Below, in pieces: positions 43,603-47,347 of a DNA stretch of 64,000 bases (position 1 is the stretch's first letter; every line of letters starts with the position of its first letter). Source of the DNA: Prosthecobacter sp. (GTDB lineage Bacteria > Verrucomicrobiota > Verrucomicrobiia > Verrucomicrobiales > Verrucomicrobiaceae); assembly GCF_021733925.1 (NCBI RefSeq), contig NZ_JAIPJY010000022.1. One strand, written 5' to 3'. Below the pieces are notes generated by a model, which had not been told where the DNA came from, did no database searches, and worked only from the letters and a program-made list of their open reading frames with translations. The position numbers were made by a program, and so were the translations under genes.

Positions 43603-43689
43603 GCGCGGTGGGCTGGAAAAACGGGTGGCACAGGTGGCGCAGACCCTGCTGGTGCGCAAACGCGTTGTTCTGGATGGGGGGATCCGGAA

Positions 43690-44137
43690 TTGGTTGGCCG
43701 CAAAAGGGCGCAAAAAAAGAGGGGAGAAAAAGGGGAGATCCCGAAGGAGTGGTGGTGTTCGGGCGGGGGCCTGTTGAAGCAGGTGCCACCATTCTTGCTG
43801 TGGGGTAAGCGGAGAGATGGGTGGTGCGCGAGCGGAGAGACAGGATTAACAGGATGGCATGATTAACGGGATTAACGGAGTTGGGTGGCCGCAAAAAGGC
43901 GCAAAAACAGAGGGGAGAAAAAAGGGATTCCTGAAGGGACGGAAGTGTTGCGTGGTGGTGATGGAGTTTGGTCGGGGCCTGATGAAGGAGGTGCTGTGAG
44001 GTGAGCGGGAGGGGTGGGTGGTACGTGCGCAGATAGACAGGATTAACAGGATGGCATGATTAACGGGATTAACGGAGTTGGGTGGCCGCAAAAAAGGCGC
44101 AAAAAAGAGGGAAAAGAAAAAGGGGGATCTGGAAGGG
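43690..44137 (+). repeat. Degenerate tandem repeat, three units, period about 191-197 bp
   Basis: TTGG(T/G)TGGCCGCAAAA..GGCGCAAAAA..GAGGG at 43690, 43881, 44078; near-identical GACAGGATTAACAGGATGGCATGATTAACGGGATTAACGGAG block at 43839 and 44036. Confidence 0.9.
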
Positions 44138-44243: not shown

Positions 44244-44795
44244 ATGAAAGAAAAAAAAGAAACCCTCCCGGCTTGGTACGTGGTGCATACGCGGCCGAAG
44301 TGCGAGCATATCGCGGCTTCGCTGATGGTGGGGCTGGAGGGGGTGGAGACGTACTGTCCGCGCATTCGGTTTCAGAAGAACACGCGGCGGGGCAAGGTGT
44401 GGTTCGTGGAGGCGCTGTTTCCGAGCTACTTTTTTGCGCGGTTCATTCCGAATGATTCGATGCGGGCGGTGAAGTACTCGCAGAGTGTCATTAAGGTGGT
44501 GGATTTTGGGGGGAATTTGACGTCGGTGCCGGACTCGGCCATCGCGGCGCTGAAGGCGGAGATGAAGGACATCGAAATTTGCGAGGTGGAGGTGGGCGTG
44601 AAGGTGGGGGATACGGTGGAGCTGACGGAGGGGCCGATGCGGGGGATGAAGGGGATTGTGAATGCGATGCTGACGGGCGTGGAGCGTGTGCGGATTCTGC
44701 TGGAGTTTTTGGGACGGGAGAATGCGGTGGAGGTGCCTCTGTCGAAGATATTGACGGAGCATACGCCACGGACAGTGCTTGCGGCGTCGCGGTGA
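44244..44795 (+). CDS. NusG paralog (RfaH/UpxY/LoaP-like antitermination factor)
   Basis: WYVVHTRP, EALFPSYFF, KVVDFG..VPD, VGDTVELTEGPMRG (KOW), RVRILLEFLGR. Confidence 0.9.
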   Translation: MKEKKETLPAWYVVHTRPKCEHIAASLMVGLEGVETYCPRIRFQKNTRRGKVWFVEALFPSYFFARFIPNDSMRAVKYSQSVIKVVDFGGNLTSVPDSAIAALKAEMKDIEICEVEVGVKVGDTVELTEGPMRGMKGIVNAMLTGVERVRILLEFLGRENAVEVPLSKILTEHTPRTVLAASR

Positions 44796-44836
44796 CCCGT
44801 TCTTCGCTAAAGCTTCGAAGGGCAAGCTGCGCTTGG

Positions 44837-44899
44837 GTGCCGCTGTCGAAGATTTTGACGGAGCATCAGCCGCGTGCGGTGATGGGGGCGTCGCGGTGA
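44837..44899 (+). other. Diverged duplicate of the last 21 codons of the NusG paralog
   Basis: VPLSKILTEHQPRAVMGASR* versus VPLSKILTEHTPRTVLAASR* at 44733-44795. Confidence 0.9.
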
Positions 44900-44974
44900 G
44901 GGTGGCCTACGGAACACGCGGAACAGACGGAAAATCAGACGAGGGTTGTTCTATTGTCAGTGCTGCTGAAGAGG

Positions 44975-46200
44975 GAGCCGGATTTGAACCACTGATCCAT
45001 TCTCCGTAGCAAGACTGCGAAGGATGAACTGGACACTGACTGACACTGATCTTGAGTCGGAATGCGGAATGTATTCAGGCTGAAGAGCAGATTTTTAACC
45101 ACTAATCGGACGCTAATAAGGCACTAATCAAGGCATTCAGAAATCCGGAATTTTGGATTGGTTTTTTGGGACTGGGCAGCGGGTGGGGGGCTTTGGTTTC
45201 GGCAAAGGAATGACTGAGTTTGGAGCTTGGGGAGGCGGTAGTTTTGCTGCTGTATTGCATACCAACCCCATCTTTCAGAATCTGTGACCACGGATCACTC
45301 GGATTGACACGGATGACTGAGGCTGAGGCTGACCCGCGCAATGGTTTTGATCCGTGCTGCTCGTGCTATCCGTGGTTCCATCTTCCCTGTTCAGTGAATC
45401 ATTCCACCCTGGCCTCATAACTCAATGCTCCGGGAGATAGAGCCGGATTTGAACCACTGACTGGACACTGACTGACACTGATCCTGAGTCGGAATGCGGA
45501 ATGAATTCAGGGTGATGAGCAGATTTTTAACCACTAATCGGACGCTAATAAGGCACTAATCAAGGCATTCAGAAATCCGGAATTTTGGATTGGTTTTTCG
45601 GGGACTGGGCAGCGGGCGGGGGGGGCTTTGGTTTCGGCAAAGGAATGGGTTGGCAATGGAATGCCTGAGTTGAGAACTTGGGGAGGCGGTTGTTTTGGCG
45701 GGAATTTGCAGCCTGGCCCCTTCTTCTCCTTCCAGAATTTCTGACCACGGATCACTCGGATTGACACGGATGACTGAGTCTGAAGCTGACCCGCTTAATG
45801 GTTTTGATCCGTGCTGCTCGTGCTATCCGTGGCTCCATCTTCCCTGTTCAGTGAGTGCCATTTCATTCTGGCCTCATTACTCAATGCTCCGGGAGATAGA
45901 GCCGGATTTGAACCACTGACTGACACTGATGCTGAGTCGGAGTCTGGGATTTTGGGAATGAATTCAGCGGTTTGAGAATGAGGAAGGCAGGAATTCAGGA
46001 ACCGGATTTCTTGGGAGGGGTTTGGTAAAAGATTTGGGGGTAAAAAGATTTTCCCGAACTTTTGGGTTTCTGAATTTTTTACCGCCCATTTTTTACCGCT
46101 TTATCTGGGGATCGAAGGACCACCCCTGTATAGATGAGCCGGATTTTAACGGCTGATCCATTCTCCGTCGCAAGACTGCGAAGGATGAATTGGACGCTGA
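44975..46200 (+). repeat. About 460-bp tandem repeat (2 full units plus 2 partial starts) built from short motif clusters
   Basis: GAGCCGGATTT(G/T)AAC at 44975, 45440, 45899, 46136; units 1 and 2 nearly identical apart from variable patches. Confidence 0.92.
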
Positions 46201-46263
46201 GATGATGCTGATTCAGAATTGGAATCTGGGCGGTGAACGACGGGGATGAGAGGGAAAAGCAGG

Positions 46264-46755
46264 TCAGGAAATTTCGCCGGAGGCTTTCAAGACGATGTTG
46301 CGGAGAGAGGGGCTGATCCAGAAGTGGGCCTCCTGCTCCAGGCGGTCGAGGAGCGGAGCGACTGCGGGAATGAGGGACTGTTCTTTGGCATCTCGAAGAA
46401 CTCCCAGAAGGCCTATCGTTCGAAGTCCAAGGGAAGACGCAGCGGCGCGGCCAGCCTGCTCGTCCATGAGGACGGCATCGGCCTGTCTTTCGACGGCGAG
46501 AGAGAGGGCGGCGACCTCTCCGGCATCCAACCTCGAGGAGGCCGTCAGCGCGGGCAGCAGTTGGAGTGGTGCTGCCTTTTCGATGAAGTGGGGGAAAGCC
46601 AGTCCCTGAAACCGTGCATCCTCTGCAGCGAGCCGCTGAAACTCCACGACGACCATGGTGGGAGCCAGGATCCTTCCATACAAAAGCCGCAGCAGCTCCT
46701 GCTGCCCGATGAGGCAGAGGTTGAGGACGACTGAGGTATCGGTGACGACGGTCAC
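46264..46755 (-). CDS. DUF3368 family PIN-domain protein (putative toxin)
   Basis: VVTDTSVVL, LDAGEVAAL, LMDEQAGR..GLRTIGLLGVL..AK; GTGA overlap with the upstream gene. Confidence 0.85.
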   Translation of the reverse strand: MTVVTDTSVVLNLCLIGQQELLRLLYGRILAPTMVVVEFQRLAAEDARFQGLAFPHFIEKAAPLQLLPALTASSRLDAGEVAALSLAVERQADAVLMDEQAGRAAASSLGLRTIGLLGVLRDAKEQSLIPAVAPLLDRLEQEAHFWISPSLRNIVLKASGEIS

Positions 46756-46991
46756 AGGGTGCGCAGGGCGCGAAGTGATTCCAAATCCTGCGCCCAACGT
46801 TCCTCATCATAAGAAGGGATGTGTCGAGCGAAGAGAGTCTGGTCGAAGGCATGACGGTCCATGCCAGCCATGCGGGCAGCCACGCCCCGTGAGACATGAC
46901 CTGCCGCATAAGCGCCGCAGGCGAGGTCGAGCAAGATTTCGGCCTCGCCCATCTCGGTGAGCGCGGGGTCATCTGGAAGCGTGATGGTCAT
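46752..46991 (-). CDS. UPF0175 family protein (putative antitoxin)
   Basis: 79 aa; LDLA..Y..GHVSRGVAARMAGMDR..F..L..DL. Confidence 0.8.
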   Translation of the reverse strand: MTITLPDDPALTEMGEAEILLDLACGAYAAGHVSRGVAARMAGMDRHAFDQTLFARHIPSYDEERWAQDLESLRALRTL

Positions 46992-47120
46992 GGATTGAGG
47001 ATAATGGAAAAGCAGGCGGAGGCAAGGCAACGTCTGCGGGGCAGGGCGTCGTTCAGGTGGGAATTGCAGGGTGAAGGGCAAGCTGCGCTTGGGGACCCAT
47101 TCTTCGCTAAAGCTACGAAG

Positions 47121-47347
47121 CACCTGAACTCAATGCGGCTGGATTGTTTAACGGAGGATACCCAGATGGAGTTTATTTGGCAGCCGTTTGCACGAACTAA
47201 GCTTCCCAGATTCCGGCTAAAGCCGGGACTACAAAACGTGTTCTGGCTGGTTTCAGATTTGGGGCGATGCGGAGCTTCCGGAACGGGCTAAAGCCCGAAC
47301 TACGTACTCAGAGGAGCCGGAAAAGTGCGAGGATGTTATTCGGGAGG
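47121..47347 (+). repeat. About 220-bp dispersed repeat with two REP palindromes; second copy at about 62487-62701
   Basis: CGAACTAAG..CCAGATTCCGGCTAAAGCCGG..CTTCCGGAACGGGCTAAAGCCCGAACTACGTACTCAGA..TTATTCGGGAG in both copies. Confidence 0.88.

Follow-up and report, generated by a model that had tools for sequence, protein, structure and literature searches.

The array at positions 44975-46240 of the window (the whole 64,000-nt stretch of Prosthecobacter sp. DNA analyzed here) is, in our judgment, probably a non-coding mosaic resembling enterobacterial BIME clusters, made of cassette arms and hairpins that carry no cargo, gathered at an insertion hot spot and enlarged by unequal recombination. 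Sequence comparison showed that the pieces of the array belong to the same arm families that flank GxxExxY and four-helix-bundle genes in this genome and, by alignment of the units, that tandem duplication has enlarged the array, the borders of the units lying at one particular arm, arm A. Comparison of related genomes further showed that every close species has its own mix of such pieces in the gap that follows the NusG paralog, and that naive, empty and gene-bearing states of the same cassette families occur at two other gaps across the genus. The arms are probably recognition sites for a protein.

The array has on one side a NusG paralog (44250-44795, plus strand, match to PF02357), of which it lies downstream, and on the other a toxin-antitoxin pair on the minus strand (46264-47123), which forms its boundary. 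This pair consists of a PIN-like DUF3368 gene (46264-46797) and a UPF0175 gene (46752-47123), called as convergent. All units and modules are given on the plus strand. A repeat search, BLAST against the genome and MAFFT alignment delimited two full tandem units of 465 bp (44975-45439) and 459 bp (45440-45898). Unit 3, placed by MAFFT, is 237 bp long (45899-46135) and consists of arm A followed by a different body, the F pair. Only the head of unit 4 is present (46136-46240), with a variant arm A, AACGGCTGA..CGCTGA, and a 33-nt insert at 46157-46189. The unit starts proposed in the first-pass annotation (44975, 45440, 45899 and 46136) are correct in that the same head was found at all four, with a spacing of ∼460 bp between units. 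Its observation on the insert was reproduced as well: in the MAFFT alignment the 33 nt are present in units 1 and 4 (44996-45028 and 46157-46189, heads at 44975 and 46136) and absent from units 2 and 3 (heads at 45440 and 45899). Units 1 and 2 align with 386 matches and 46 mismatches, an identity of 89.4%, and differ by indels of 33, 16, 6, 2, 2 and 1 nt, a non-triplet pattern; the part that unit 3 has in common with them is the first arm (head) only. Elsewhere in the genome the composite unit recurs at C97:176460-176860, where it is 83% identical, and a partial copy lies at the start of C115. The 460-bp period was absent from the TRF output.

Phased heptamer triplets number 661 in the genome (7.3 Mb), compared with 160 after local shuffling. 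Six of them fall within 900 bp of the array region (44900-45800), where 0.08 are expected, a 75-fold enrichment. It is hardly credible that the array is chance low-complexity sequence or an artefact of assembly. The genome is a draft in 127 contigs, and nothing else favors this reading, whereas the two 460-bp copies are 10% divergent and lie on one contig between unique flanks, independent assemblies show homologous mosaics at the same locus, and the arms are enriched in the array to the extent just given.

A full unit contains, in order, modules A, B, C, a small palindrome, D and E. Arm A (AACCACTGAC / CACTGAC / CACTGA, spacing 11/10; 45451-45484) heads every unit, with other copies at 44986-45049, 45910-45932 and 46147-46212; in the first of these it is split by the 33-nt insert, which interrupts the first heptamer. 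Module B is a doublet of CGGAATG with a period of 7 (45058-45071; second copy 45490-45503). Module C is an orphan forward arm, AACCACTAAT / CGCTAAT / CACTAAT, with a spacing of 11/11 (45091-45128; second copy 45523-45560). Module D occurs as a half, GGCAAAGGAATG, at 45201-45212 and in unit 2 as the full doublet GGCAAAGGAATG..GGCAATGGAATG at 45636-45663. Module E is a complete empty hairpin (45288-45375) in which three copies of CACGGAT face ATCCGTG..TCGTG..ATCCGTGG across a 35-nt loop; the two arms were found at 45288-45314 and 45350-45375, as first described, and the whole module recurs at 45745-45832. Module F, likewise located where it had been reported (46024-46097), is an inverted pair of GGTAAAAGAT x2 and ATTTTTTACC x2 around a 28-nt loop. 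Upstream of unit 1 lies a further orphan forward arm, G, of the ACGGAAC type (GGCCTACGGAAC / GCGGAAC / GACGGAA, spacing 9/9; 44903-44940). A common design of two or three motif copies in a fixed phase of 7, 9-11 or ∼16 nt was found in six triplet arms and in the doublets B, D and F. An inverted partner arm nearby is present only for E and F. The first-pass annotation had treated all the motifs as paired and inverted; this description holds for E and F and has to be given up for A, B, C, D and the upstream arm G, which stand alone.

A coding reading of the array was rejected, since none of its five ORFs contains a Pfam family and the indels between units are non-triplet. No sigma-70 promoter or terminator consensus was found in the array. 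A structured RNA was also rejected: Rfam returned nothing on the window at the gathering threshold and nothing by E-value on seven loci, and single-strand folds and alifold with column shuffles remained at background level. The fold z-scores were +0.31 for unit 1 as RNA and +0.45 for orphan arm C, and as single-stranded DNA -1.4 and -1.8 for the E hairpins and -2.5 for the F pair; alifold of the orthologous C-D block gave z = -0.46 and -1.61. Covariation within the E hairpin is uninformative because its arms are almost invariant over about 45 distinct units. Conserved RNA structure, for which the first-pass annotation had suggested a covariance analysis, thus received no support from alifold, fold shuffles or Rfam. 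Attachment repeats derived from tRNA fragments were rejected too, as ARAGORN found no tRNA gene in the window and, in our own reading of the sequence, GGATTTGAACC of the unit heads has no paired T arm.

The genome holds nine TIGR04256 (GxxExxY) and nine TIGR02436 (four-helix-bundle) genes, most of which lie between inverted arms of phased short repeats. Inverted arm pairs of this genome form two classes according to the gap between them, 13-115 bp when empty and 418-800 bp with a gene inside. The layout of the arms differs between the two protein families, with repeats 9-11 or ∼16 nt apart around GxxExxY genes and contiguous heptads around four-helix genes. The GxxExxY motif itself is kept in six of the nine GxxExxY genes. 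An acidic-x-K motif (ELK; DPK in C33) after an upstream D was read by eye in seven of the nine translations; a loose acidic-x-K pattern matches all nine and therefore does not discriminate.

Five arm families of the array recur beside genes of these two families in the same genome. The GxxExxY gene at C33:266-643 lies inside a tandem array of 103-bp CACGGAT hairpin units, which correspond to module E. The one at C65:42501 has an empty CACTAAT pair immediately upstream, equivalent to C, and downstream a reverse CACTGAC arm with 94% identity to A. Upstream of the GxxExxY gene at C6:17338 is TTTCGGCAAAGGAAT...GCAATGGAATG, of the GGCAAAGGAAT family, which corresponds to D, and the four-helix gene at C59:2494, between GCGGAATG heptad arrays, is accompanied by the CGGAATG heptamer of B. 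Two more GxxExxY genes, at C123:6135 between pheS and pheT with AGGATTAAC arms and at C23:100339 with GGCCGCAAAA arms, match a separate array upstream of the NusG paralog (window 43685-44124), where three tandem units of 191-197 bp carry GGCCGCAAAA..GCGCAAAAA and ACAGGATTAAC arms. The family of arm G flanks a GxxExxY clade in G010, G012, G042, G043, G051 and G060. For module F no cargo-bearing partner was found in this genome. The association of such motifs with GxxExxY and four-helix-bundle genes, which the first-pass annotation had put forward, is therefore real in this genome. The outcome that would have spoken against it, motifs found nowhere else and in no association with those gene families, was not obtained, since the motifs occur at dispersed sites in the genome and in its relatives and adjoin these genes. 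As separate observations, a 443-aa ORF between inverted ACTTCAAC/ATTTCAAC arrays (G000 C54:2075-3555) may be another kind of cargo, and a nested set of two arm families at G000 C2:24672-25524 is without a clear ORF.

We compared the gap after the NusG paralog in species-level genomes, one per species of the genus. Among 41 genomes of the genus, 37 have just one copy of the paralog, and related mosaics follow it in the close species G001, G002, G006, G014, G017 and G053. The C-D block keeps its position and aligns with 73-81% identity in G053, G001, G002, G014 and G006, so that arm C is orthologous in five species. The gap in G017 contains one E hairpin and an A-like arm, and that in G001 contains three tandem copies of the unit-3 type followed by the same toxin-antitoxin pair. 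The repeat family directly after the NusG stop codon differs among G000, G001, G006, G014 and G017; in distant species no repeat family is present there. A tblastn search with 18 cassette proteins gave no GxxExxY or four-helix match in the gap among 14 relatives. Together with the lack of Pfam families in the ORFs, this result bears out the claim that the modules are without genes. Since each close species differs and the gap is free of cargo in the 14 relatives, it is a long-lived, fast-changing site at which cargo-less pieces accumulate. The position of the unit borders at arm A points to unequal recombination between copies of A.

The same comparison bears on the view that the repeats serve the host, with arms that are bound by a host protein or that affect the transcript of the NusG paralog as a 3′ UTR stabiliser, terminator or insulator, the small genes merely lodging nearby. 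We consider this unlikely. The conservation of the C-D block in five species is in its favor, as are the recurrence of the 26-nt E reverse arm, with no more than one mismatch, in different species, among them genomes that lack the matching gene, and the report of Xanthomonas heptamer arrays as stable intergenic features (PMC4692102). However, neither a promoter or terminator consensus nor a conserved fold was found in the array, and the modules after the same gene vary in every close species and are absent in distant ones, unlike a conserved regulatory element.

Several observations were made around the array. The window contains two copies of the end of the NusG paralog, one in-frame at 44732-44795 and one outside the gene at 44836-44899. 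The copy outside the gene is ∼93% identical to the true gene ends of G001/G022, compared with 86% for the in-frame copy, and a second copy of the gene end is found in G002 and G006 too, at other distances. Such duplicates suggest that the end of the NusG gene was replaced together with an inserted repeat. The toxin-antitoxin pair (46264-47123) is 92% identical to that of G001 and the adjoining repeats ∼80%; in G001, direct copies of the unit head with the 33-nt element lie on both sides of the pair. A circularly permuted copy of the 41-bp insert (44796-44835) and two CTAC-ended hairpins occupy window positions 47080-47124, 47205-47235 and 47283-47305. These hairpins, of the GGCTAAAGCC type, resemble ordinary GTAG-tagged REPs. 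The 33-nt element (core CCATTCTCCGTAGCAAGACTGCGAAGGATG, 30-33 nt) occurs in one to five copies in 16 of 61 genomes of the genus, with zero to two mismatches and unrelated flanks, and is conserved far above its surroundings. In three cases it lies within heptamer arms. It has no match in Rfam.

Across the genus, the heptamers of the flanking arms shift with the phylogeny of the GxxExxY protein between them. In the clade of the C33 protein, members with 88-100% identity to C33 have arms of CACGGAT, those with 80% and 47% identity have CACGAAT, and those with about 40% identity have CGCGAAT. The arms of other GxxExxY clades carry ACGGAAC, CACGGAA, CGCTAAT or CACTAAT. Orphan arms also change in concert. 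The heptamers of the orthologous arm C have shifted jointly, being of the CACTAAT type in G000, the CGCTGAT type in G053, CGCTAAT in G002 and CACTCAT in G014. Mismatches within arm C total 22, compared with 35.4 ± 3.2 when slots are shuffled among sequences, a value reached by only 2 of 20000 shuffles, although the rows, being related, are not independent. Base pairing cannot maintain an orphan arm, and its concerted change therefore suggests either that something reads the repeated heptamer or that other copies convert it.

The abundance of arms was also compared with the presence of the matching gene. Arms of CACGGAA have a median of 11 in 11 genomes with a C47-type gene and of 2 in 20 genomes without one (Mann-Whitney p = 5.5e-4, kinship ignored), with G002 (18 arms) and G053 (17 arms) as exceptions; the one GxxExxY gene of G002 is of another type. 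The 26-nt E reverse arm, with at most one mismatch and mostly exact, is present 31 times in G000, 22 times in G017, 11 times in G022, four times in G002 and three times in G014, and a C33-type protein (at least 80% identity) was found in G000, G006, G018 and G047 only. A strict coupling of the E arms to a C33-type gene was therefore rejected, because G017, G022, G002 and G014 have the arms without the gene. None of the six GxxExxY genes of G017, a genome that is 99% complete, lies near its E arrays. The arms without a matching gene in G017, G022 and G002 indicate that arms persist, and arrays amplify, where that gene is absent. At one locus in G017 (L042, C5:73900-75700), a genome in which no C33-type gene was found, 15 nearly identical CACGGAT hairpin units of 101 bp follow one another in tandem. 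Similar arms accompany two unrelated folds, GxxExxY and the four-helix bundle, and could thus serve a host process and not the cargo protein.

Different states of the cassettes were compared at the C47 locus and at the gap between pheS and pheT, in 30 genomes each. At the C47 locus nine genomes are naive: the gap measures 13-25 bp and the gene downstream has an ordinary signal peptide. In G072 the hairpin is present without a gene. The gene is present in 9 of the 30 genomes and in G049 and G071, either between two arms or between two hairpins, and three genomes have an orphan arm beside an unrelated small gene. The reverse arm at this locus (L076, G000 C47:98300-101600; L080-L109) lies inside the downstream gene, and in filled and empty states alike it encodes LILPCILCIPWL of the signal peptide of the neighbor and supplies its hydrophobic core; where the arm is missing, the signal peptide is unrelated. 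The forward arm is present in direct copies around the C47 gene, and a single recombination between them would give the state seen in G072. At the pheS/pheT gap 12 genomes are naive, six have the AGGATTAAC cassette and ten have empty CGCAGAG, CACGAAT or GAAGAATGGGGACA hairpins, families that are cargo-free there in all 30 genomes. At least four arm families, with or without cargo, have used this gap. The empty hairpins mean that empty copies can also arrive alone or else lose their cargo without trace, and the patchy distribution of states on the phylogeny indicates repeated gain and loss.

The first-pass annotation had thought of the modules as scars or as landing pads, and these states allow both ideas to be weighed. 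In a pure form of the first, each module would be the remnant of a cassette whose gene was lost by recombination between arms, and nothing would move without cargo. The direct forward-arm copies that flank the gene in the forms with two hairpins fit such a process, for recombination would leave one hairpin, as in G072, and the loop of the G072 hairpin matches the 3′ hairpin of gene-bearing relatives. We nevertheless regard it as quite improbable as a full account. The empty families at the pheS/pheT gap, with no cargo there in any genome, argue against it, as do empty copies within one family, which have unrelated loops and no gene remnants, and tandem arrays of 7-15 units that contain hairpins only.

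As landing pads, the hairpins would be homing sites: a nuclease would cut an empty pair belonging to its family, the gene would be inserted when the break is repaired from a copy that carries it, and the array would be a set of unoccupied sites. The co-divergence of arm families and protein clades would be expected from this, and at the C47 locus the hairpin alone in G072 contrasts with a hairpin plus gene in 11 other genomes. At C33 and in G006, moreover, the gene lies within a pre-existing type of hairpin array. In C33, G006, G047, G049 and G067, however, the gene is located between two complete hairpins, none of which is split; a gene between two whole hairpins, and not inside one, indicates that insertion leaves the site unsplit. 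Most modules of the array are single arms, unable to form a two-arm site, and the locus is unoccupied by any gene in 14 relatives. For these reasons homing into the array seems to us an unlikely explanation.

For the mosaic of cargo-less arms and hairpins that we prefer, the following mechanism can be proposed. Each arm would be a row of two or three putative sites, one helical turn apart, for a sequence-specific protein, and the most likely candidate for this reader would be the nuclease encoded by the matching cassette. By nicking or binding the arms it may lead to their copying, gene conversion and recombination in trans, an action modelled on that of RAYT with REP/REPIN and of Ssn with NTS. 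Orphan arms and empty hairpins could then have two sources, the insertion of cargo-less copies and the recombination of direct arm repeats with deletion of the cargo. A bolder version, which we put forward as speculation with a low probability, is that the arms are addressable docking sites. Each GxxExxY clade would read its own 4-nt code in CAC-NNNN heptamers, one helical turn apart, and cut at the common AACCAC / GTGGTT ends. Favored gaps, that after the NusG paralog among them, would be multi-family platforms, loosely similar to integrons, at which small selfish cassettes and empty shells are inserted, exchanged and lost, sometimes rewriting the ends of neighboring genes, as with the C47 signal peptide.

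The function of PF13366/TIGR04256 is listed as ‘Unknown’ (PMC3424549), and in the literature on GxxExxY, TIGR04256, TIGR02436 and PF05635 we found no paper linking arms to these genes. The present results give PF13366/TIGR04256 and TIGR02436, large families without an assigned function, a concrete DNA partner. They also provide, within one genus, material for the bench: matched pairs of protein and arm whose heptamers are a single base apart (CACGGAT, CACGAAT and CGCGAAT), orphan arms that drift in concert and gaps in naive, empty and filled states. If the nucleases read the arms, RAYT and Ssn would be joined by a further independent nuclease fold, the third to sustain a repeat population of its own, and the heptamer arrays of other phyla, reported without a function, would be explained. 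Otherwise, the array amounts to ordinary repetitive clutter in a tolerant gap.

The 23S rRNA intervening sequences (IVS) of Leptospira and Coxiella contain a small ORF for a four-helix bundle, bordered by inverted repeats capable of pairing. The copies described here differ from the IVS in that they lie outside rRNA, most modules have no partner, and they fold no better than shuffled sequence. Heptameric intergenic repeats are known from Xanthomonas and Nostoc, with 70-75 convergent pairs in Xanthomonas that are usually kept between the same genes in sister species (PMC4692102), and TAACTGA repeats from Beggiatoaceae (PMC4679880). These resemble the array in having tandem 7-nt units in intergenic gaps with no function assigned, but their motifs are different and no composite units of several families have been described. 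The text of the two papers contains no GxxExxY or four-helix-bundle terms and no link of heptamers to such genes.

A closer parallel is found in the small site-specific GIY-YIG nucleases of the Ssn type, which recognize a flanking hairpin repeat (NTS/SRM) and of which 71% of homologs have at least one repeat nearby (PMC11893778). As here, the gene for a small nuclease is flanked by a repeat that has many dispersed copies without the gene, and the repeats fall into families by specificity. The nuclease fold and the design of the repeat are different, and cutting of single-stranded DNA has been demonstrated for Ssn, whereas cutting by GxxExxY proteins is putative.

The REP/REPIN-RAYT system and its BIMEs (PMC3116915, PMC3337134, PMC3733652), which with Ssn-NTS come closest among described systems, differ in that the flanked gene encodes an HUH Y1 transposase and not, as here, a small protein of the PD-(D/E)XK fold (GxxExxY) or a four-helix bundle. 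PF01797 has 21 matches in the genome, none within about 10 kb of the listed module copies. The arms consist of two or three phased heptamers, several of them alone, in place of a palindrome tagged with GTAG or CGTC; neither tag occurs in the arms, and GTAG is present only in the 33-nt insert, within the loop of a weak hairpin. The two systems nevertheless share short extragenic repeats, inverted doublets and a flanked single-copy gene of nuclease type. In both, each clade of the gene has its own repeat sequence and gene-less copies far exceed the genes, and in BIME clusters, as in the array after the NusG paralog, such repeats form tandem and mosaic clusters between genes.
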